DNA of 38,695 nucleotides from a bacterium. Its GTDB lineage: Bacteria; UBA9089; JAHJRX01. Positions 156 through 38,190 of this stretch are shown in pieces; within the stretch, counting starts at the first letter, position 1, and every line of letters starts with the position of its first letter. A program made the translations under genes and the position numbers. The notes under the pieces were generated by a model that saw only the letters and a list, made by a program, of their open reading frames with translations, had not been told where the DNA came from and searched no databases. The stretch is from contig JAHJRX010000035.1 of NCBI GenBank assembly GCA_018830565.1, forward strand, positions 1 through 38,695, read 5' to 3'.

Positions 156-183
156 GGGGTCAGACCTCGAAAGCAGAATTAAC
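156..183. repeat. left terminal inverted repeat (28 bp) of the IS-like unit
   Basis: Exact reverse complement of 1171-1198, read directly from the sequence. Confidence 0.9.
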
Positions 184-1143
184 TATACCCTCTACTTTCT
201 TTTGAAATTCTTTATGTTTGTTTATCTGTTCTTTTACTCGAATACTTGTTTTACCTATTGCAGTCGAAGTTACTCCAAACATCTCACCTATTTTCTTATT
301 ACTCAATCCAGTGTAACTATATAAAATATAAATCGCTACATCCCTGGCTGTCTCCTGCCGAAATCTTCTCCTTTTTATTATTCTATCCTTCTCTACCCCA
401 AATCCATTTATTACTGCATCTAATACCTTTTCAGCAACTTCGTTATCACCCAACCTTCTCTGTTGTGGTAATTCACTGTTTATAACCTTTCTGTTCACAA
501 ACTTCTTCTCTATCCAACTAACAAATTTATCACTACCTAAAACTAATCCATATCTTATCTTTTCTAAAATCCTCTTCTCCTGCCCACACCTCTCCATTAT
601 TAACTGTTGATATTTAATCCGGGCATCTTCTTCACTCTTCCCTAATCCTCTTAATACCTCTTCTCTCAATACCCATTTATGTACTTTCTTTATCCCTGCA
701 TAATCATGATAACTGCTCCATTTATACTCATTTAATTCCTTTACCATTCCTGCCCGAATTGGATTTAAGTGAATATAAAAACTTAAGTTTTCCCAGTAAT
801 TTTCTTCACCTACAAGTATGCTTTTATATCGTCCTTGAAATAAATGTCCGCTTCTGTTATGTCTCCGATTGTAGTAAACACTATAAGATGTTTGTAACCA
901 CTGTATTGCCCTGGAAAGATTTGCCTCTTTAGTACGCAATAATAAATGATAATGATTCCCCATTAGCACAAATGCAAAAATCTCTATCCCAAATTTCTCT
1001 ACAACCTTCTCAAGGTATTCTAAAAAACGATGATAGTCTTCATTAATGGTATATATCTCTCCTTGAGCAACTCCTCTTGACATAACATGATAAACTGCAC
1101 CTTCGTATTGTATTCTCCAAGGTCTTGCCATAATAGTTCTCAT
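160..1143 (-). CDS. Y1 (HUH) tyrosine transposase of the IS200-like / REP-associated (RayT-like) class, fused to a C-terminal DnaA domain-IV-like HTH
   Basis: 327 aa. HUH motif GNHYHLLL. C-terminal segment RDVAIYILYSYTGLSNKKIGEMFGVTSTAIGKTSIRVKEQ resembles the DnaA C-terminal DNA-binding domain (R.IAMYL....S...IG..FG.RDHTTV). The ORF lies between the 28-bp IRs. Confidence 0.7.
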   Translation of the reverse strand: MRTIMARPWRIQYEGAVYHVMSRGVAQGEIYTINEDYHRFLEYLEKVVEKFGIEIFAFVLMGNHYHLLLRTKEANLSRAIQWLQTSYSVYYNRRHNRSGHLFQGRYKSILVGEENYWENLSFYIHLNPIRAGMVKELNEYKWSSYHDYAGIKKVHKWVLREEVLRGLGKSEEDARIKYQQLIMERCGQEKRILEKIRYGLVLGSDKFVSWIEKKFVNRKVINSELPQQRRLGDNEVAEKVLDAVINGFGVEKDRIIKRRRFRQETARDVAIYILYSYTGLSNKKIGEMFGVTSTAIGKTSIRVKEQINKHKEFQKKVEGIVNSAFEV

Positions 1144-7668: not shown

Positions 7669-7697
7669 TTGACAATTTCTATAAAAGCAATTACCAT
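7669..7697 (+). promoter_or_regulatory. candidate sigma70-like promoter for the radical SAM-GT2 operon (TTGACA-17-TACCAT)
   Basis: TTGACA at 7669-7674, a 17-nt spacer, TACCAT at 7692-7697, about 70 nt upstream of the TTG start at 7770. An AAAGGGG ribosome-binding site lies upstream of that start. Confidence 0.3.
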
Positions 7698-7769: not shown

Positions 7770-9530
7770 TTGAAGGTAGTTCTTGCTAATTCAGTAGGCA
7801 TAGATAAAGATGGTTATTATATTGTTCATTCTCCAAGTAGGTGGTCATTTTCTGCTAAAGATTATAAAGAGCAATTTACTTACTATCCATGGGAATTAGC
7901 TTACACTTCAAGTCTTTTGAAAAGAGAGACTAATAATAAGATTAAACTTCTCGATGGCTGCTTAGAAAAATGGGATTTTAAGAGATATCTTGAAGTACTT
8001 AAAGAAGAAAAGCCAGATTGGCTAATCATGGAACCATCGTCCCGGACTTATGATGAAGATTTGAGATTAGCTTTGGCTTGCAAAGAAGTGTTGGGCACAA
8101 AGTTAGTCTTTTGTGGTCAACATGCCATCGCTTATCCTGATGAAGTATTAAAAGCCGGGATTGATTATGTTGGTATTGGAGAGTATGAATATACTGTCTT
8201 AGAACTAATTCAAGGAAAGAATCCTTCTGGTATCCTTGGTCTTTATCCCAATCAGAGAAGACCTCTTTTAAACTTTAATACTCTTCCTTGGCCTGAAGAT
8301 GATGATGTGGCCCGGATAAAATATCATGAACCAAATTGTGAATATCAAGAGATCCAACTATATGCCACTAGAGGATGTCCTTTGCAATGTGTCTTTTGTG
8401 TCTGTGGGAATCTTTACTATCTAAAACCTAATTGGAGACCACGAAATCCTAAGGAGGTAGTAGCTGAACTTAAATACCTTAGGAATAAATATCCCCAAAT
8501 GGAAGGTGGGTTTTTTGATGAAGAGGTTCATAATGCTTCAAAAGCTTATATTCTTGAACTTTCTAAAGCTATAGTCGAAGCAGGATTAAATGACCTTCAT
8601 TATACCGCTATGTGTGGTTATTGGAATCTCGATCAAGAAATGCTTGCTGCTATGCGGAAAGCTGGTTATTATAAATTAAGGATTGGCATAGAAACCGCCA
8701 GCGCTAAGATTGCTGAATGCATTGGGCTAAAAAGTAAGTTTAACATAGAAAGACTGTATCAAGTTTTAGAAGAAGCAAAAGAAGCGGGAATGAAGATTTA
8801 CGGAACCTTTCTTTTTGGAGCCTTAGGTTCTATCAAGGAAGAAGACGAAAAGACCGCTCGTTTAATTCAAGACATAACCAGCAAGGATCTTTTATGTGAC
8901 TTGCAAATCTCTATTTGCACCCCTCAACCAGGGACTCCTTTTTATAAGATCGCCCAAGAAAAAGGATATTTAATTAATGAAGACTTAAGAAAGTTTGATG
9001 GAGCTCAATCTGCGGTAATAAGTTACCCGGCATATTCCTCAAATGATATTTATCAAACTTTTCGTTATGCTTTTCAATGCTATGATCAAGGCTTAGAAGA
9101 AAGAAAGAGGATAAAATTCCTACCTAAACTAATAAATAATTTACAAATTCATCTTTTGGATAACATCAAGAAGGTTTTACTTTTACGATCTGGAAGAATG
9201 TGGCAAGTAAATTTGGGAATGGAAGCGCTAAAGAAGATATTTCCAGACTCAAAGATAGATATTTTATGCCAAGCAAATATAAAGAATGTGATAGAAGACA
9301 ATCTTAATGTCAATAAGATTTATGTTTATGGAGATGGTTTTATCAACTTAGATACTTTTGATAAGTTATTGTTACCACAACTTACCAATGAAGATTTTGA
9401 TTTAGTGGTCGTCTTGTATAATAATTCAACAGGAAGAGGTTTTCAAGAAGTAAATAGATTAGCTATGTCTTTAAATCCTAAAAAGATCATCGCTATTAAT
9501 CCTGACGGAGAGATAGAGCAGGTGAAATAG
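7770..9530 (+). CDS. B12-binding-domain radical SAM enzyme (class B type) with a C-terminal GT9 N-domain-like Rossmann module
   Basis: Rossmann-like B12-binding region at the N-terminus, then radical-SAM CPLQCVFC (CxxxCxxC) in YATRGCPLQCVFCVCGN. The C-terminal ~120 aa KVLLLRSGRMWQVNLGMEALKKIFPDSKIDIL...VYGD resemble the N-terminal acceptor half of GT9 heptosyltransferases (K[IV]L[IV]IR..A.GD....P.L..L...FPDAEIDWL). TTG start. Confidence 0.7.
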   Translation: MKVVLANSVGIDKDGYYIVHSPSRWSFSAKDYKEQFTYYPWELAYTSSLLKRETNNKIKLLDGCLEKWDFKRYLEVLKEEKPDWLIMEPSSRTYDEDLRLALACKEVLGTKLVFCGQHAIAYPDEVLKAGIDYVGIGEYEYTVLELIQGKNPSGILGLYPNQRRPLLNFNTLPWPEDDDVARIKYHEPNCEYQEIQLYATRGCPLQCVFCVCGNLYYLKPNWRPRNPKEVVAELKYLRNKYPQMEGGFFDEEVHNASKAYILELSKAIVEAGLNDLHYTAMCGYWNLDQEMLAAMRKAGYYKLRIGIETASAKIAECIGLKSKFNIERLYQVLEEAKEAGMKIYGTFLFGALGSIKEEDEKTARLIQDITSKDLLCDLQISICTPQPGTPFYKIAQEKGYLINEDLRKFDGAQSAVISYPAYSSNDIYQTFRYAFQCYDQGLEERKRIKFLPKLINNLQIHLLDNIKKVLLLRSGRMWQVNLGMEALKKIFPDSKIDILCQANIKNVIEDNLNVNKIYVYGDGFINLDTFDKLLLPQLTNEDFDLVVVLYNNSTGRGFQEVNRLAMSLNPKKIIAINPDGEIEQVK

Positions 9531-10468
9531 TGAAAGTAAGTCTGGTGATTACCAATTGGAATGGAAGAAAGCTTTTAGAAGAATGTTTACCTTCTATCTT
9601 AAAGGTAGTAGACAAAGATAAAGATAGAGAGTATGAGGTATTAATTGTAGATGATTGCAGTCAAGACAATAGTGTAGAATTTATTAAGAGTAACTTTCCT
9701 TCCTTTAAAGTCCTTATCCCAGAACGCAATCTTGGTTTTCAAGGAGCTACTAATTTTGGGGTCTTAAATTCCAGTGGAGAAGTAGTCATTCTCTTAAATA
9801 ATGATCTAAAAGTTAGAGAAGATTCATTTTTTCCCCTCTTGGAATACTTTAAAAGAGAAGATGTCTTTGCGGTAGGTGGAAAGTTATTTCAATTTGACGA
9901 AACTAGTTATTTAGCAGGAAACTATCGAATCATATTTAAAAGAGGTCATTTTAGTATATTTACTGCTCCCCAATCAGATACTTCTTATTATATTCCTTTT
10001 GTTTGTGGAGGGGCAGGAGCTTTTGACAAAAAGAAATTTTTAGAACTTGGTGGTTTTGACAACTTGTTCTATCCCTTATACTATGAAGATATAGATATCT
10101 GCTATCGAGCCTGGAAGAGGGGATGGAAATGTATTTATGAACCAAAAAGTTTAATGTTTCATAAACATCAAGCTACTATTGCTACTCAAGTAAAGAAGGT
10201 AAAATATTTATCAGGTTGCAATAATTATCTCTTTACCTGGAAAAATATGACTGATTTTAGTTATATTTTAGCTCACCTCTTTTTTGTCCCTTTATTTTTA
10301 TTAAGAGACTTAATCAAAAGAAATTTTCGTTTTTGGAGATGTATATTTAAAGCCTTAAAGAAACTTCCTCAAGTCCTTCAAAAAAGGAAGAAGGAAAAGG
10401 GGCGAGATACACTTTCAGATAAAGAAGTATTAGCCCTTTTCGGCGCACCTTATCAAAATAATCTTTGA
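9530..10468 (+). CDS. family 2 glycosyltransferase (GT-A, DxD type)
   Basis: N-terminal VSLVITNWNGRKLLEECLPSI...EVLIVDDCSQDNS, plus YEDIDICYRAWKRGW. GTG start overlapping the upstream stop (TAGTG), so it is coupled to the radical SAM gene. Confidence 0.8.
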   Translation: MKVSLVITNWNGRKLLEECLPSILKVVDKDKDREYEVLIVDDCSQDNSVEFIKSNFPSFKVLIPERNLGFQGATNFGVLNSSGEVVILLNNDLKVREDSFFPLLEYFKREDVFAVGGKLFQFDETSYLAGNYRIIFKRGHFSIFTAPQSDTSYYIPFVCGGAGAFDKKKFLELGGFDNLFYPLYYEDIDICYRAWKRGWKCIYEPKSLMFHKHQATIATQVKKVKYLSGCNNYLFTWKNMTDFSYILAHLFFVPLFLLRDLIKRNFRFWRCIFKALKKLPQVLQKRKKEKGRDTLSDKEVLALFGAPYQNNL

Positions 10469-10523: not shown

Positions 10524-11651
10524 TTAAATGAGATTATGTACCTTTAATAACCCCACTATTTCTTGATAAACTTCTTCTACGGTAATTAATTGCATACATT
10601 TGGCAGAAGTAGGAGCATCAAGACATATTTTTCTATAACAAGGAGCACATTCTAAATCAGGGACCATAGCTTTACCTCGATTGTAGAAATATACTTCTTG
10701 GGCACAAGTAGAGCCAAAGATAGCTAAGACTAATCTCTTTAAAGCAATCGCAAAATGCATGGCAATAGAGTCTCCTGTAATAATAAGATGACAACTATTT
10801 ACAATACCAGCAAACTGCATCAAAGTGTTATCGCAACCAGTGTCAATAATCGGGAAATCTACCAAAGATTTAATCTGACTATTTCTTTCCACCTCTTCTG
10901 GTCCGCCCAAAAGTAAGACCTTGGCTTTTAATTCTCGATGGAGTTTATTAGCCAAAGTCACATATCCTTCCAGTGTCCACTTTTTAGTAGCAAAGATAGG
11001 TCCACAACCAGTGTTAAGTCCGATCACTAAATCGCCTTCTTTTATTTCTTTACTTTTAATAAGATTTTGGCCATATTTTAAATCTTCGTCACTAACTGGT
11101 AAGATATATTCTTCACCTTGAAATTTTAAACCAATAGCTTCAAAGATAAACTCTTGATAACTTTGTTTATTTTTTTTAAACTTTAAGGGGTCATTAATGC
11201 CTAACTGGAAAGAATATTCTGCTTCTTTATTTAAAGGATAGATATTACCATGAGCTTCTAAACCATAGCCTAATTTTTCTTTGCTTTTAACGAGGCTGGC
11301 TAAACTTGTGGCTCCTGTATCTTTATCTAAGCAATATAAGATATCAAATTCTTCTACTTGTAATCTTAGAATTGTATTTAGGTCTAAGATGTACAATTTA
11401 TCAATCAAAGGATTTTCTTTTAATAACTGAAAAGAAGCTTTATCGGAGACCCAAGTAATGTGACCAGGATCATATTTTTCTCGGAGAAGTTTTAAGAGAG
11501 GGGTAGTGCGAAGCACATCTCCCATGGCGCCTAATTTGATAATTAAAAGCCTTTTGCCCATAGGTTTGTAATTTGAGCAGTCTTCACAGAGGCTCTTATA
11601 TTTACATGGTTTTTCTCCTATCAAATAACGACAATCTAATCTCAATTTCAT
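10524..11651 (-). CDS. family 9 glycosyltransferase (ADP-heptose:LPS heptosyltransferase-like) with an N-terminal Cys4 extension
   Basis: KRLLIIKLGAMGDVLRTTPLLKLLREKYDPGHITWV matches the GT9 N-terminal signature. Full GT-B length. It is preceded by CRYLIGEKPCKYKSLCEDCSNY (C-x8-C-x5-C-x2-C). Confidence 0.75.
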   Translation of the reverse strand: MKLRLDCRYLIGEKPCKYKSLCEDCSNYKPMGKRLLIIKLGAMGDVLRTTPLLKLLREKYDPGHITWVSDKASFQLLKENPLIDKLYILDLNTILRLQVEEFDILYCLDKDTGATSLASLVKSKEKLGYGLEAHGNIYPLNKEAEYSFQLGINDPLKFKKNKQSYQEFIFEAIGLKFQGEEYILPVSDEDLKYGQNLIKSKEIKEGDLVIGLNTGCGPIFATKKWTLEGYVTLANKLHRELKAKVLLLGGPEEVERNSQIKSLVDFPIIDTGCDNTLMQFAGIVNSCHLIITGDSIAMHFAIALKRLVLAIFGSTCAQEVYFYNRGKAMVPDLECAPCYRKICLDAPTSAKCMQLITVEEVYQEIVGLLKVHNLI

Positions 11652-11708
11652 ACTTTTTCTCCTTTTGCCTTTTCCTTATTATATCTTATTGATATTTTAG
11701 TGTCAAAT

Positions 11709-24438: not shown

Positions 24439-25473
24439 ATGAATACTTTTAGCTGTGATTGGTTAAAGAACAATACTCCTCACCGCGATATAGTGATCAG
24501 TAGCCGCATTCGTTTAGCCAGGAATGTAAACAAGATTCCCTTTCCTCATTGGGCGAAAAAAGAAAGTTTAAGAAAAGTGGTCTCTTTGGTCGAAGAAGCC
24601 ACAAAAAAGTGCCCTTATTTAATTAACTCTAAATATTATGATTTAGATAAATTAACCTCATTAGAAAAGCAGTACTTAATAGAAAGACATCTTATTAGTT
24701 TAGAACATGCCAATAGTAAAAATGGTCTGCTCATTGTTAGCCAGAAAGAGATGGGTAGCCTTATGGTCAACGAAGAAGATCATCTAAGAATTCAAAGCTT
24801 GGATGCAGGTTTAAACCTTTTCGAAGCTTGGGATCTTATTAATAAAATTGACGATTCTCTTTCCGAGGTATTGGATTACGCTATTTCTCCTCAATGGGGA
24901 TATTTAACGGCTTGTCCTACTAATGTAGGAACTGGAATAAGGGCTTCAATAATGATTCATCTACCAGCTCTTATCTTAACTGGACAAATAAATAAAGTAT
25001 TAAAAGGAGTTTCTCAATTAGGATTAACGATTAGAGGTTTATATGGAGAAGGGAGTGAAATCTTAGGAAATTTATTTCAAATATCTAATCAGATCACCTT
25101 AGGACGATCAGAAGAAGAGACCATTGATCATGTGGAAAAGATTTCAAAACAAATTATTAATTATGAAAAAAATGCCCAAGAATTGTTAATTAAAGAATCG
25201 GCTATTCAATTAGAAGATAAAACATTTAGAGCTTACGCTACCTTAACCCATGCTCGAGTTATTGATTCTAACGAAGCCATAAATCTTCTTTCTGTCGTAA
25301 GATTAGGGGTAAGCAGTGGCATATTAAAGGATATCTCCTTGGAAATTTTAAATGAACTTCTTGTTATTACTCAACCAGCTCATATTCAAAAATTTTTTAA
25401 CACTCCTCTTACTCCAGAACAGAGAGATGTAAAACGAGCAGAATTAATCAGAGAAAAATTTTCTATCACTTAA
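24439..25473 (+). CDS. mcsB: protein-arginine kinase McsB (phosphagen/guanidino kinase family)
   Basis: CPTNVGTGIRASIMIHLP matches the phosphagen-kinase active-site Cys block. 344 aa. Sits between mcsA and clpC. Confidence 0.8.
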   Translation: MNTFSCDWLKNNTPHRDIVISSRIRLARNVNKIPFPHWAKKESLRKVVSLVEEATKKCPYLINSKYYDLDKLTSLEKQYLIERHLISLEHANSKNGLLIVSQKEMGSLMVNEEDHLRIQSLDAGLNLFEAWDLINKIDDSLSEVLDYAISPQWGYLTACPTNVGTGIRASIMIHLPALILTGQINKVLKGVSQLGLTIRGLYGEGSEILGNLFQISNQITLGRSEEETIDHVEKISKQIINYEKNAQELLIKESAIQLEDKTFRAYATLTHARVIDSNEAINLLSVVRLGVSSGILKDISLEILNELLVITQPAHIQKFFNTPLTPEQRDVKRAELIREKFSIT

Positions 25474-25533
25474 AAGTTATTTTTAAATTTCAAATTAGCT
25501 AAAAACAATATCTTAAATTTGGAGGTAATATAT

Positions 25534-27981
25534 ATGTTTGAACGTTTTACGGAAAGGGCAAAAAGAGTTATTTCCCTTGCTCAAGAAGAAGCTAAAAAAT
25601 ATAAGCATAACTACATAGGTTCTGAACATTTACTTTTAGGTATCATCGATGAAGGAGAAGGAGTAGCGGCAGAAGTATTTAACAACTTAGATATTAATTT
25701 AGATAGCATTAAGATGGAGGTAGAAAAATTAGTTTCTCCAGGAGGGGGTGCTTTAACTTTAGGAGATGTTCCATTTACTCCTCATGCTAAGAAGGTCCTG
25801 GAGTTAGCCATAGAAGAAGCTCATCTCCTTAACCATAATTATGTAGGAACAGAACATATCTTATTAGGATTAGTAAAAGAAGAAGAGAGCGTAGCCGCTC
25901 GAATTTTATTAAATAAATTTAGTGCAGATTTAAACACCATCCGGGAAGAAATTTTAAAAATATTAGGAGGAACTGCCTTTCCTGTTACCTCTGCTCCTAA
26001 GAAGAAAAAGACCACCACTCCTGTTTTAGATGCTTTCTCCCGAGATTTAACGGAGTTAGCTAGGAATAACAAATTAGACCCGGTAATAGGCAGAGAGGAA
26101 GAGATTCAAAGAGTTATCCAAATCTTAGGTCGTCGAACTAAGAATAATCCTGTGTTTATTGGGGACCCTGGAGTAGGAAAGACGGCAATCGTAGAAGGAC
26201 TAGCTCAAAAAATTGTTCAAGGTCAAGTTCCAGAATCTTTAGCTAATCAACGAGTTGTTTCTTTAGATTTAGCCTCCATAGTAGCGGGAACAAAGTTTAG
26301 AGGTGAATTTGAAGAAAGATTAAAAAGAGTAATTAACGAAGTAAAACAATCTAAAGAGATCATTTTATTTATTGATGAAATGCATACCCTGGTAGGAGCA
26401 GGTGCCGCTGAAGGAGCAATTGACGCTGCCAGTATCTTAAAACCTGCCTTAGCCAGAGGAGAGCTTCAATGTATTGGAGCTACTACTTTAGATGAATATC
26501 GTAAATATGTAGAAAGAGATGTGGCCTTAGAGCGACGATTTCAACCTATTTATGTGGATGAACCAACTATTGAAGAAACTATTGAGATCTTAAAAGGATT
26601 AAGAGATCGTTACGAAGCTCACCATCGCATCGAGATTACCGATGAAGCCATTGAAACTGCCGCCAAGTTTTCGTATCGGTATATTTCTGACCGTTTCTTA
26701 CCTGATAAAGCTATAGATTTAATCGATGAGGCTAGCTCGCGAGCTAAGCTTCAACTTACTACCACTCCGGCCGATCTAAAAGATCTTGAAAAAGAAATTG
26801 AACAAGTCTCTAAAGAAAAAGAAGCTTCTATTAGTGAACAAGAATTTGAAAAAGCTGCCTCTTTTAGAGATAAAGAACGTCAGTTAAGAAAAAAATTAGA
26901 ACGAATAAGAAAGGAGTGGAAAAATAAACACGGCATTTCTGATCGCTCTGTAAAAGCAGAAGATATTGCTAATGTTCTCTCATCATGGACAGGTGTTCCC
27001 ATATGTAAATTAGTAGAAAGTGAATCTGAAAAATTACTCCGGATGGAAGAAGATCTTCATAAGAGAGTTATAGGACAAGATGAAGCGGTAACCATCATTA
27101 GTAAGGCTATTCGTAGATCTAGAACAGCCTTAAAAGATCCTTGTCGTCCCGCCGGTTCATTTATCTTTTTAGGACCTACCGGTGTGGGAAAGACAGAATT
27201 AGCTAAAGCCTTAGCTGAATTCCTCTTTGACGATGAAGAAGCTCTTATTCAAATAGATATGTCTGAATTTATGGAAAAATTTGCGGTTTCAAGGCTTACG
27301 GGTGCTCCTCCTGGATATGTAGGCTATGAAGAAGGAGGTGAACTTACCGAAAAAGTTAGAAGAAGGCCTTATTCGGTAATTCTCTTAGATGAGATAGAAA
27401 AAGCTCATCCTGATATATATAATATCCTTCTCCAAGTATTAGAAGATGGGCAGCTTACCGATAACTTAGGACATACTGTGGATTTTAGGAATACCGTGAT
27501 TATTATCACTTCTAATATAGGAGCTAGGGATATTTTATCTAATTCTGGCTTGGGCTTTCGTACTCCCGATGAAGAACGATCCTACGAAAAAATGAAAGAA
27601 AAAGTTACTTCAGAAACCAAGAAGATATTTACTCCTGAATTTATAAATCGGATTGATGAAATTATTGTCTTTCATCCTTTAAGTAAAAAAGAGATTGAAA
27701 AAATTGTGGCTATAAAGATTGAAGAACTAAATGAAAGATTGGAATCTCAGAATATCCAAATAGAATTAAGCAAGGAAGCAGCTAAGCATTTAGCTGAAAA
27801 AGGATATGATGTTGCTTATGGAGCTCGTCATTTAAGAAGAGTTATCCAAAAAGAAATTGAAGATCCTTTATCCGAAGATCTAATCAGAGGTAATCTTAAA
27901 GATAATGAAACTATCGTTATAACTATAGAAGATGGAAAACTTACTTTTAACAAGAAAGCTTCTTTAAGTCCCTCAAGATGA
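25534..27981 (+). CDS. clpC: AAA+ unfoldase ClpC (class III stress-response Clp ATPase)
   Basis: Starts [12 protein letters not shown] with a GGAGG ribosome-binding site; the ORF from 25519 is an in-frame extension. Two Clp-N repeats, two AAA modules (GDPGVGKT and GPTGVGKT), and a UVR-like linker. Confidence 0.85.
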
Positions 27982-33968: not shown

Positions 33969-35534
33969 TCAGTTAAGACCAGGAACATTACTTAAATGTT
34001 TTATAGCTTGGGGAATATCGTTCAAAACATCACTGGCTATCAAAGAAAGTTCACCTCTTTCTTTAAGAGCTATATCTCCTGATAAACCATGGAGATATAC
34101 CCCTAATTTACTTGCTTCTAAAGGATTCAAGCCTTGAGCCAAGAACCCGCCGATGATACCCGTTAAAACATCTCCCATTCCTGGTGAAGCCATACCAGAA
34201 TTACCCGTAGAATTTATGAAAACCTCTCCGGTAGGAGAGGCAATAATTGTATTTGCTCCTTTTAAAACTAGAACAAGATTATATTCCAGAGCTACTTTTT
34301 GAGCATAAAAGATCCGATTTATTAAGATATCCTCAATCTTAGTCTTTAAAAAATGAGCTAATTCTCCAGAATGAGGAGTAATTATTACCGGTGCTTTGGC
34401 TTTCTTTAATATTTCTGGCTTTTCAGCTAAAGCAAATATAGCATCAGCATCAATAACCATAGGAATATTAATACTTTCAACTAAGTTATGAATAAGTTTT
34501 ATGGTTTCTTTTTCTCTGCCGATACCAGGCCCCAAAGCGATAGATTGGAATTTAGAAATTAAGTTCATTATCGTAGAATAACCTTTATAGCTAAAGCTAC
34601 CCAAAGGAGTCTCTGGTATTGGATGAGTCATTACTTCGGTTAGCTTAACTTCCAGGATAGAATTTAAACTTTCAGGAATACCTAAGATCACAATTCCACT
34701 TCCTGTTAGTAAAGCTGCTTGGCTGGATAAAGTAGCAGCTCCAGTCATTCCTCGACTTCCAGCCAATAAGAATATTTTTCCGCACCTACCTTTGTGGTCA
34801 TCTTTTAATCTTTTAGGAAGAAGTAAAGAAATATCTTCTTTTTCTAGATAATTTAGACATAAATTAGGATCATTAAGAAGGTCTTTAGGAAAACCAAGAT
34901 CTAATATCAATAACTTGCCAAGATAATTTATTCCAGGTGAAAGAAACATTCCTATTTTAGGAAGACCAAAAGTAAAGGTATAGGTAGCTTTAATAGAAGT
35001 ACCTAATAATTTACCACTATCCCCATTAATTCCTGAAGGAATATCTAAAGAGATAATAGGTTTTTTTAAAGAGTTAAGACAATTTATAATCTCAACAAAG
35101 TGATCCGATAGTCTTTCTTTACCTCCTATGCCTAAAATAGCATCAATAATCAGATCGAAGGAAAACAATTCATCTTTTTCTTTCTGGAAATTTTCTATGG
35201 AATTAGCCTTCCTTATAGGAATCTTAAGTGATTTAACTATCTTTAAATTAGTTTCAGCTATACCTTTGGCTTTCTCTTCGTCCATCATTAAAAATACCTC
35301 TACAGAGATATCTTGATTAAAAAGATGTCTAGCTATTACCAAGCCATCTCCGCCATTATTCCCCGGACCAACAAAAACAGCTACTTTTTTAAACTTTAAA
35401 TCAGGGAAGAGCTGGTGGAGACTTTCTATGCTCTTGATACCTGCATTTTCCATTAAAATAATACTTGGCATAAAGTATTTTTCAGTAGCCATCTTATCTA
35501 TTTCATACATTTGATTAACATTAGCAACTTTCAT
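33969..35534 (-). CDS. nnr: bifunctional NAD(P)H-hydrate repair enzyme Nnr (YjeF N-terminal epimerase plus C-terminal dehydratase)
   Basis: N-terminal YjeF_N block GPGNNGGDGLVIARHL. C-terminal carbohydrate-kinase-like domain with GDVLTGIIGGFLAQG. 521 aa. Confidence 0.8.
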   Translation of the reverse strand: MKVANVNQMYEIDKMATEKYFMPSIILMENAGIKSIESLHQLFPDLKFKKVAVFVGPGNNGGDGLVIARHLFNQDISVEVFLMMDEEKAKGIAETNLKIVKSLKIPIRKANSIENFQKEKDELFSFDLIIDAILGIGGKERLSDHFVEIINCLNSLKKPIISLDIPSGINGDSGKLLGTSIKATYTFTFGLPKIGMFLSPGINYLGKLLILDLGFPKDLLNDPNLCLNYLEKEDISLLLPKRLKDDHKGRCGKIFLLAGSRGMTGAATLSSQAALLTGSGIVILGIPESLNSILEVKLTEVMTHPIPETPLGSFSYKGYSTIMNLISKFQSIALGPGIGREKETIKLIHNLVESINIPMVIDADAIFALAEKPEILKKAKAPVIITPHSGELAHFLKTKIEDILINRIFYAQKVALEYNLVLVLKGANTIIASPTGEVFINSTGNSGMASPGMGDVLTGIIGGFLAQGLNPLEASKLGVYLHGLSGDIALKERGELSLIASDVLNDIPQAIKHLSNVPGLN

Positions 35535-37038
35535 GGTAACCCTTAAATAAAAAGTAATACTTAATCTTTTTATAGCATTTCTTTAACAGCTTGTAAATTA
35601 AGATTAAACCCCAAATAAGATCAAGGTGGTAGAATTTATACTTTATCCTTAACGAAGTAGTTAATTTCAGAAAATTATAAACAAATTCTAATTTAAATTT
35701 TTTTACCAGCTTAAGAGTAGAGAAGGGAGGATATAAGATCTCCAGATAGTATTGAAAAAACCTCACTACCTTCATTTCGTACCTAAGGTTAGTCCAGGGC
35801 ACCACTACCTCTTCTGTCTTAAACTTAGTCCATTCTAAAAGATTTAAAGGAGGTTTAAATCCATGCTCTTTAGCCATTTCAAAACCATAAGTTCCAGGCC
35901 AGGGAGAGTAATGATGAATAGAGATGAGACAGTTAGGATGAATATTCTTTAGTCTTAAGACTAAGTCAAATGTCTTCTCCAGGTCTTTAAAGCCATCTTC
36001 TTTCATCATTCCCACGATAAAAGAATAAGAAGGTCGAATATCATATTTTTTTAAGATCGTATTACATCTTTCAATATCAGAGAAAGTTATATCTTTCTGA
36101 ATAAGATCAAGGATCTTATTAGAACCACTTTCAGCTCCAAGGTATAAGAGACCAAGCCCACTCTTCTTCATATAAAGAAGAAGCTCTTCATCTAAATGCA
36201 AAACTTGATCAACTCTAATATTAGCCTCCCAAGTGATATTTAAGCCTTCCTCGCAGATGCTTTTAAGTATCTCTTTAGCTCTTCTTCGATGAATGAAGAA
36301 GTTAAAATCCAAAATATTTATCCGATTTACTTTAAATCGAGAGACTAAATATTTCAAGTCATCAACTACTTGTTCTACCTTTAAAGCATAATATCTATTC
36401 CTTCCAAAGGTAAGAGGAACGCAACAAAAAGCACATCTTCCGTAACAACCAATACTTGAAACATAACCTAAAATTCGAGACTGACCATCAAAACTTTTTT
36501 GAATATGTCTTTCTACTGGTATTAAGTCGTATGCTTTTCGATTGATAGGTTTTATATCTTTGATAAATTGTATTTCATTAACTTTGATCTCCTGACCTTT
36601 TCTATAGACTAAGGATGGTATCTTTTTAAAGTCCTCCTTATTTTCCAAAGACTTCACTAATTCCAAGAAGGCCAGTTCTCCTTGACCTCTAATAATAAAG
36701 TCAATCTTCTTGTCTTGGAGTATTTGTTCATACATCAAGGTAGGAAACCATCCTCCCCAAACTATAGGTAAGTTAGGAAGATGTTTTTTTATAAGGCAAG
36801 TAACCCGGTAGCCACTCTTAACTTGATTTCCTAAAATTAAGCTTATTCCTAAACAAAGAGATTTTTTAGATAGAGCCAGGAGTCTTTCTTCAAAATTATC
36901 TTCAATGTTGGCGTTAATGATGTTAACTTGATAGCCATTTTCCAAGAGAGGAGCAGAAATAGCCAAAAGTCCCAAGGGAGGATAAGAAGGAGTTTCATTA
37001 ATTAAGGGGTAAAATAAAGTTATCTCTTTATTAGCCAT
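35521..37038 (-). CDS. B12-binding-domain radical SAM enzyme (second copy in the window)
   Basis: N-terminal Rossmann/B12-like region (ITLFYPLINETPSYPPLGLLAIS). Radical-SAM cluster motif CYGRCAFC (CxxxCxxC). Basic/aromatic C-terminal tail. Start placed at MANKE; the ORF can extend to 37101. Overlaps nnr by 14 nt. Confidence 0.7.
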   Translation of the reverse strand: MANKEITLFYPLINETPSYPPLGLLAISAPLLENGYQVNIINANIEDNFEERLLALSKKSLCLGISLILGNQVKSGYRVTCLIKKHLPNLPIVWGGWFPTLMYEQILQDKKIDFIIRGQGELAFLELVKSLENKEDFKKIPSLVYRKGQEIKVNEIQFIKDIKPINRKAYDLIPVERHIQKSFDGQSRILGYVSSIGCYGRCAFCCVPLTFGRNRYYALKVEQVVDDLKYLVSRFKVNRINILDFNFFIHRRRAKEILKSICEEGLNITWEANIRVDQVLHLDEELLLYMKKSGLGLLYLGAESGSNKILDLIQKDITFSDIERCNTILKKYDIRPSYSFIVGMMKEDGFKDLEKTFDLVLRLKNIHPNCLISIHHYSPWPGTYGFEMAKEHGFKPPLNLLEWTKFKTEEVVVPWTNLRYEMKVVRFFQYYLEILYPPFSTLKLVKKFKLEFVYNFLKLTTSLRIKYKFYHLDLIWGLILIYKLLKKCYKKIKYYFLFKGYHESC

Positions 37039-37101
37039 ATTGAAATTTTCAGATTCCCTTGTGTGTGTCCGATTTCTGCACAGGTCGAAAAACTTGAACA
37101 T

Positions 37102-37251: not shown

Positions 37252-38190
<939 letters not shown>

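Follow-up and report, generated by a model that had tools for sequence, protein, structure and literature searches.

Gene layout at the locus

The DNA analysed here is contig JAHJRX010000035.1 of assembly GCA_018830565.1 (GTDB lineage Bacteria; UBA9089; JAHJRX01), positions 1 to 38,695; we refer to this whole 38.7-kb stretch as the window. At 7770..9530 it encodes a radical S-adenosylmethionine (SAM) protein of 586 amino acids (aa), followed with a one-nucleotide overlap by a gene for a family 2 glycosyltransferase (GT2). Using profile and structure comparisons, we find that the last ~120 residues of the radical SAM protein, here called the C-domain, are homologous to the acceptor-binding half of family 9 glycosyltransferases (GT9). 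What is new is a sugar-type radical SAM protein with an undescribed accessory domain, and a domain family of clear GT9 origin. The features of the locus are:

7669..7697, + strand: promoter-like site TTGACA-17-TACCAT, ~73 nt upstream of the radical SAM start, matching the consensus at 10 of 12 positions
7770..9530, + strand: radical SAM protein gene, 586 aa, TTG start, stop codon TAG at 9528-9530
7770..8210, + strand: B12-binding-like Rossmann domain, residues 1-147, below the threshold of PF02310, with the fold present in the AlphaFold2 (AF2) model
8337..9029, + strand: radical SAM core barrel, residues ~190-420
8376..8399, + strand: radical SAM cluster motif C203-x3-C207-x2-C210, invariant in 40 sequences
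9039..9152, + strand: long connecting helix of 38 residues, 424-461, assigned by DSSP on the AF2 model
9162..9527, + strand: C-terminal domain resembling the GT9 N-terminal half, residues ~465-586 (~120 aa)
9530..10468, + strand: GT2 glycosyltransferase gene, 312 aa, GTG start, PF00535 at 83.1 bits (cut-off 23.3)
10524..11651, - strand: GT9 glycosyltransferase gene, 375 aa, PF01075 at 56 bits (cut-off 22)
11678..11706, - strand: sigma-70-like site TTGACA-17-TATAAT upstream of the GT9 gene, a perfect 12/12 match

The N terminus of the radical SAM protein agrees with the starts of 39 aligned homologues, and an AAGGGG ribosome-binding site is found 8 nt 5′ of the TTG start codon. The promoter-like sites are to be read with caution, as sigma-70-like matches in this region are no commoner than in shuffled sequences. 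At the end of the gene, stop and start codons merge in the sequence TAGTG, in which the TAG at 9528-9530 shares 1 nt with the GTG that starts the GT2 gene at 9530.

The radical SAM core belongs to PF04055 (Radical_SAM), with 52 bits over residues 199-365 and a cut-off of 29.5. The N-terminal domain scores 24.9 bits against PF02310 over residues 40-146, where the cut-off is 32.1; several family members and paralogues pass this cut-off (e.g., P0010 with 47.7 bits), and the motifs H20-x-PSRW25 and Y38YPW41 are invariant in the 40-sequence alignment. An AF2 model of the full-length protein built on this alignment has a predicted local distance difference test score (pLDDT) of 93.2 and a predicted template modelling score of 0.90. 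In this model the C-domain is a five-stranded alpha/beta domain with an added terminal strand (residues 468-584), and modelled in isolation it has a pLDDT of 93.6. The radical SAM protein has no membrane helix, its maximum 19-residue hydropathy being 1.13.

The C-domain is a homologue of the GT9 acceptor-binding half

Aligned by hhalign with a 24-protein GT9 alignment, the C-domain scored a probability of 94.3% (E 1e-7) over 109 columns that fall within GT9 residues 31-144 only, and it scored 95.9% against the isolated GT9 N-terminal half. The controls gave 0.6% for the GT9 C-terminal half and 0.5% for the protein's own N-terminal Rossmann domain. Because the GT9 N-terminal half scores high and the control Rossmann domains stay below 1%, the homology is specific and goes beyond the shared Rossmann fold. 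The isolated C-domain was also searched with Foldseek against 350,542 chains. Only three chains were found at E≤1e-3, all with the GT9 fold: both chains of 3tov and PnsB1 (9grx_1), which its PDB entry names as a photosynthetic NDH complex subunit. A profile of 26 C-domains searched against PDB sequences again placed PnsB1 first (E 0.0085), with RfaF (1psw) at E 0.84, and the NCBIfam full-length heptosyltransferase models RfaQ, HepIII, and HepII matched the C-domain at E 1e-3 to 5e-3 over profile positions 17-95. The C-domain is thus a true homologue of the N-terminal, acceptor-binding Rossmann half of GT9.

An earlier reading of this DNA from its letters alone (the sequence-only reading) had proposed this resemblance, and it holds at the levels of both profile and fold. 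A predicted structure and a structural search, the kinds of check which that reading had suggested, led to GT9-fold proteins as the top matches. The FPD.[KE]ID.L block that it had pointed out is present as FPDSKIDIL and aligns to YDPGHITWV of the neighbouring GT9. A scan with the Glyco_transf_9 profile, a further suggestion, is uninformative either way because PF01075 matches the window's own GT9 only from residue 163 (model position 66). We rejected a flavodoxin-like or B12-like identity for the C-domain, given its 0.5% score against the protein's own B12-like domain and no cobalamin-binding proteins among the top structural matches. Neither the C-domain nor its stand-alone copies (see below) had a match in our Pfam scans, and the domain has no Pfam or NCBIfam model of its own. 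As the sequence-only reading had supposed, a radical SAM-GT9 fusion appears to be uncharacterised: we found no paper describing one, and nothing relevant in the literature on radical SAM-heptosyltransferase fusions or on the Nitrospina enzymes of this family.

The N-terminal domains of GT-B glycosyltransferases bind the acceptor, and positive loops in that of HepI are thought to bind the phosphates and carboxylates of lipid A; the GT9 N-terminal half binds Kdo2-lipid A-type acceptors (PMC5713226). The donor-binding half described by PF01075 has no match in Pfam anywhere in the 586-aa protein, which ends with the half-domain. In the hhalign alignment, W478-Q479 of the C-domain occupy the place of G44-D45, which are invariant in the GT9 alignment, and at the position of this Asp the radical SAM family varies, with Q, H, M, E, F, and other residues. 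The GT9 Asp is D13 of HepI, the proposed catalytic base in the loop after strand 1 (PMC5713226). Since it has neither the donor half nor the catalytic Asp, the C-domain is not a transferase; it is a degenerate, non-catalytic copy of the GT9 acceptor half.

The C-domain has conserved residues of its own. R473 and R476 are invariant in the radical SAM family and directly follow strand 1, and Q501 after strand 2, Y520 after strand 3, N552 after strand 4, and G580 are also conserved, with N552 sitting in a YNNxxGxG(Y/F) loop. The parallel sheet carries R473, R476, Q501, Y520, and N552 along its C-terminal edge, where folds of this kind usually bind their ligands in a crevice. From this position and from the presence of two Arg, the ligand may be anionic.

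Gene neighbourhoods of the radical SAM family

We observe at least 680 homologues of the radical SAM protein, mostly 575-610 aa long, with 46-76% identity over 96-100% of the query (most over 99-100%). They are hosted by Nitrospinota, Lindowbacteria, Hydrogenedentota, Omnitrophota, Dependentiae, and unclassified bacteria. Gene contexts were surveyed in 78 genomic loci from a genome scan, with neighbours taken within 10 kb, and in 6 more loci from contig look-ups.

A GT2 orthologue (32-71% identity) lies directly 3′ of a radical SAM gene with C-domain in seven other loci (L001, L004, L006, L007, L019, L036, L042), and together with the stop/start overlap in the window this supports the coupling of the two genes noted in the sequence-only reading and shows it to be conserved across phyla. 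Larger glycan clusters surround the gene elsewhere. The Lindowbacteria cluster, represented by L019, encodes a GT9, a CmcI methyltransferase, a B12 radical SAM protein, the radical SAM protein with C-domain, a GT2, an epimerase, a MoaA-like radical SAM protein, and a GT4. Another (L084) contains a PMT_2 protein with tetratricopeptide repeats (TPR), a GT2, two radical SAM proteins, a radical SAM protein with C-domain, a 175-aa protein, a second radical SAM protein with C-domain, a GT2, and a GT28_C protein. The overlapping, conserved GT2 and the surrounding glycan clusters in several lineages support a link between the radical SAM protein and glycan synthesis. The NCBIfam and PDB sequence matches of the window GT2 are generic (MftF, EpsD, TarS, DPMS) and point to no narrower specificity. 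Residues 240-262 of this GT2 form a weakly hydrophobic helix.

The most frequent arrangement is a three-gene unit, found in ~55 of the 78 loci and mostly in Nitrospinota, in which a radical SAM gene with C-domain is followed by a gene for a ~200-aa C-domain protein and then by a second radical SAM gene with C-domain. One example is L079 7605-11758 (others are in L012, L014, L025, and L059); in L079 and L080 the unit comes just after a divergent SRP54/FtsY-type gene.

Variants that lack the C-domain and are 55% identical occur in Omnitrophota and candidate division B38 (6 loci), with a GT2 directly 3′ in three of the six (L071, L073, L078). The operon at L073 8995-14438, also seen in L071 and L069, encodes a SPASM radical SAM protein, the radical SAM protein, two GT2s, and a WecA/MraY-type protein (PF00953). 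The L073 radical SAM protein ends in a highly basic tail of ~50 residues, which may bind the membrane in place of the C-domain.

The C-domain is a mobile module found near membranes

In the middle protein of the three-gene unit, the C-domain precedes a strongly hydrophobic C-terminal helix (19-residue hydropathy 1.7-2.9), and there is a GEWxFRK motif; as predicted from these elements, the protein has the layout of a tail-anchored membrane protein. A profile of such stand-alone proteins scored 99.5% (E 3e-22) against the fused C-domain, 95.7% (E 9e-9) against GT9, and 96.6% against the GT9 N-terminal half in hhalign. Stand-alone copies are present in 58 of the 84 loci. The window has only the fused domain, with no anchored or stand-alone copy in its 38.7 kb.

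We then asked how widely the domain is distributed. A C-domain profile searched against 1.84 billion representative proteins, with clusters taken at 50% identity, found 777 representative clusters at E≤1e-3 and 168 at E≤1e-10. Pfam assignments in the best 150 of the 777 comprise 16 GT4, 16 radical SAM, 5 GT2, 3 methyltransferases, 2 MptE-like, and 2 SPASM proteins, and one each of a DegT aminotransferase, a GT61, and a sulfatase, with the remainder being stand-alone domains or fragments. PF01075 was matched in none of these 150. A hydrophobic helix follows the C-domain in 68 of the same 150 clusters, mostly within ~10-40 residues.

The order of the parts varies. Enzymes may precede the domain, as in GT4, C-domain, and anchor; GT2, TPR, C-domain, and anchor; methyltransferase, C-domain, and anchor; and cytidylyltransferase followed by C-domain. 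There are also proteins with two C-domains and an anchor, and a multi-pass protein whose N-terminal region is GT-C-like by appearance and is followed by two C-domains and an anchor. In other cases the C-domain is at the N-terminal end, followed by a hydrophobic helix and a complete GT4. Six such proteins (P0257, P0276, P0284, P0306, P0317, P0324) have one strongly hydrophobic helix between the C-domain and the complete GT4. A membrane-spanning helix there would split the two domains across the membrane, which would be odd for a nucleotide-sugar enzyme, and the helix may instead be interfacial or re-entrant. Altogether, the fusion partners and the helix that follows show that the module is typically membrane-adjacent and tied to glycoconjugate synthesis.

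The neighbouring GT9 gene

The GT9 gene downstream is convergent with the GT2 gene, and their stop codons face each other across 55 bp. The sequence-only reading was right that this gene encodes a full-length GT9 with an added N-terminal Cys motif (Cys 7, 16, 22, and 25); the divergent orientation that it gave is wrong. Matches to the NCBIfam HepI, HepII, and HepIII models fall at the N-terminal as well as the C-terminal end of the protein. In its subfamily, C7, C16, C22, and C25 are at least 90% conserved and C335, C338, C343, and C352 are invariant, an eight-Cys pattern that suggests two metal or iron-sulfur sites in a heptosyltransferase-like enzyme.

This GT9 subfamily gave 4892 matches, among them proteins of Desulfobacterales, Brocadiales, Planctomycetes, and Omnitrophota. 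A Desulfobacterales cluster encodes LpxI, two further genes, LpxB, LptF/G, the GT9, PMT_2, PAP2, GT2, PMT_2, PAP2, and an MsbA-like ATP-binding cassette exporter, and no radical SAM gene of the family is present in this lipid A cluster. A relative 77% identical to the window GT9 has neither a GT2 nor a radical SAM gene adjoining it. Conversely, any GT9 occurs within 10 kb in only 2 of the 78 loci (L004 and L019), and these are only 22-24% identical to the window GT9. We therefore rejected the GT9 as a partner of the radical SAM protein, as the sequence-only reading had it: the adjacency is not conserved, and the GT9 gene runs convergently and comes with a perfect promoter-like match of its own. 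The window GT9 is probably an independent gene of lipopolysaccharide (LPS) or lipid A type outside the radical SAM/GT2 unit, and its adjacency looks incidental.

Catalytic relatives of the radical SAM protein

The best NCBIfam match of the radical SAM protein is HpnJ (TIGR03471, 157.3 bits over residues 34-436), and all other NCBIfam radical SAM families score at most 69.5 bits. No hopanoid genes (shc, hpnH, hpnI, hpnK) are among the annotated genes of the window, and NCBIfam gave no HpnI match for the window GT2. Among solved structures, AprD4 (PDB 6fd2) is the nearest, at 18% sequence identity; its NCBIfam model NF033070 gives 48 bits, below the cut-off of 500. After AprD4, the structural neighbours are MgmA, TsrM, and CysS, which are cobalamin-dependent enzymes.

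From genetics, HpnJ has been proposed to contract the glucosamine ring of bacteriohopanetetrol glucosamine to a cyclitol ether after HpnI has added the sugar, and an analogous ring contraction on a glycolipid has been proposed for the archaeal Cds (PMC9204698, PMC13459092). AprD4 is a 1,2-diol dehydratase that acts on an aminoglycoside sugar in apramycin biosynthesis and is listed as not binding cobalamin (PMC12931638). By these matches, the closest two relatives act on sugar rings without methylating them.

Proposed function and alternatives

The explanation we favour, tentatively, is a radical rearrangement, contraction, or deoxygenation of a GT2-linked sugar on a membrane glycoconjugate. 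An HpnJ/AprD4-related radical SAM protein of the non-methylating type would abstract a hydrogen from a sugar carbon and then rearrange, contract, or deoxygenate the sugar of a membrane-associated (lipid-linked) glycoconjugate, and the sugar itself would be added or elongated by the GT2, whose gene overlaps the end of the radical SAM gene. The C-domain would hold the anionic head of the membrane-bound substrate, or the membrane surface, beside the active site. By analogy with the acceptor half of GT9, presentation of a lipid-linked acceptor is a plausible role for the domain.

Several observations weigh against this explanation. The HpnJ score of 157.3 bits is far under the equivalog cut-off of 577.6, so the chemistry may differ. 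The combination of a B12-binding domain with a radical SAM core is mostly tied to methylation (PMC9204698), and the B12-like domain of the family is above the Pfam cut-off in some members. The second Arg of the C-domain is not invariant among the stand-alone copies. Most of the family consists of the Nitrospinota three-gene units, and within 10 kb of these we detected neither a GT2 nor a GT9. A lack of glycosyltransferase neighbours, which the sequence-only reading had named as telling against itself, is thus found in ~55 of the 78 loci, with the GT2 present at some of the others. A WecA-type transferase was considered as a general neighbour and rejected, as the only three loci with one have a radical SAM protein without the C-domain.

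The C-domain could instead be a homotypic assembly module that recruits soluble enzymes to the tail-anchored copy or to other pathway enzymes and binds no substrate, an alternative that we consider somewhat unlikely. The ~55 loci that combine two C-domain radical SAM proteins with a tail-anchored copy would fit such docking, as would the presence of the domain on many enzyme classes of glycan pathways and the membrane helix that commonly follows it. PnsB1, the NDH subunit among the top GT9-fold matches, hints at a structural role for the fold. However, the most conserved residues of the C-domain cluster at the ligand crevice and form no obvious surface patch, and the 38.7-kb window has no anchored copy to which the fused domain could dock. 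Holding a substrate and docking are not mutually exclusive roles.

A bolder reading is speculative, and we regard it as rather improbable: the C-domain would be an undescribed GT9-derived juxtamembrane module that steers glycan-tailoring enzymes to a shared lipid-linked substrate or tail-anchored scaffold, and the HpnJ-like radical SAM protein and the GT2 would together yield a carbocyclic (cyclitol-type) or deoxy sugar. If true, Nitrospinota and several uncultured phyla would possess a bacterial equivalent of the routes to hopanoid cyclitol ethers or archaeal calditol.

The protein is quite unlikely to be a class B (cobalamin-dependent) radical SAM methylase for C-methylation of a sugar in the GT2 product, with the C-domain as a substrate-recognition add-on. 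The methylation-linked pairing of B12-binding domain and radical SAM core (PMC9204698) and the several family members over the PF02310 cut-off would favour such a methylase, but every methylase family ranks clearly below HpnJ and AprD4, and the window protein itself is under that cut-off. Least probable of all is the original proposal of the sequence-only reading, that a B12 radical SAM enzyme C-methylates or rearranges a heptose or inner-core glycolipid together with the GT9 and that the half-GT9 domain hands over the LPS-core acceptor: a B12-like domain, a C-domain derived from GT9, whose N-terminal half binds Kdo2-lipid A-type acceptors (PMC5713226), a GT9 gene 55 bp away, and an organism that appears to be diderm (the window encodes MlaEFD, a TonB-dependent receptor, and a BamD-like TPR protein) would suit it, but the GT9 adjacency is not conserved, the GT9 is convergent with its own promoter-like site and belongs to a subfamily far wider spread than the radical SAM family (4892 vs 680 matches), no heptose-synthesis genes of gmhA/hldE type are seen among the annotated window genes, no evidence points to a heptose or inner-core substrate, and the closest radical SAM relatives are non-methylases, HpnJ with its proposed ring contraction and AprD4, a dehydratase without cobalamin (PMC12931638).

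These results open several uses. The 777-cluster domain family, for which Pfam has no model, is a handle for annotating hundreds of hypothetical proteins. The radical SAM family itself numbers at least 680 and is abundant in marine Nitrospinota, and its kin perform rare sugar ring chemistry on glycolipids and aminoglycosides, so the family may make a novel membrane or envelope sugar. The pair of GT2 and radical SAM genes is small enough for direct testing by heterologous expression.

Other features of the window

At 35521-37101 (- strand) the window encodes another B12-binding radical SAM protein, 526 aa long and unrelated to the first, which matches PF02310 above its cut-off (55.6 bits). It adjoins a gene for an NAD-dependent sugar epimerase/dehydratase at 37252-38187 (- strand), and the two may be another sugar-modifying pair.

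A gene at 24439-25473 (+ strand) for an ATP:guanido phosphotransferase similar to McsB, a protein arginine kinase, lies directly upstream of a gene for a ClpC/ClpB-type AAA+ chaperone at 25519-27981 (+ strand). The pairing of an McsB-type kinase with ClpC is best known from Firmicutes, and here the McsB-like/Clp pair occurs alongside diderm markers in the same window. At 160-1143 (- strand), Pfam assigns both a Y1 transposase domain and a DnaA C-terminal DNA-binding domain to one 327-aa protein (323 aa in L081), an unusual combination.

Comparison with known systems

Like the radical SAM protein described here, HpnJ has a layout of B12-like domain and radical SAM core, and it acts on the sugar that a GT2, HpnI, has first put on a membrane lipid as its head group (PMC13459092). 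It differs in that its models span 472 positions with no C-terminal GT9-like domain, and its own reaction is a proposal from genetics. AprD4 is likewise without a GT9-like domain, at 454-457 residues, and its substrate is a soluble aminoglycoside.

The GT9 heptosyltransferases (WaaC/WaaF; 2h1f, 1psw, 3tov) have an N-terminal half that is homologous to the C-domain and in register with it from strand 1. In contrast to these enzymes, the C-domain has only half of the GT-B fold and carries its own motifs, (I/L)RSxxR and YNNxxGxGY.

Separate GT-B halves are known from Alg14, a membrane-anchored N-terminal half that pairs with a complementary C-terminal half of Alg13 type to rebuild a transferase. 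The tail-anchored C-domain proteins are likewise separate, anchored N-terminal GT-B halves. However, the proteins that accompany them have that same half again, we saw no complementary one in the vicinity, and the anchor sits at the C terminus.

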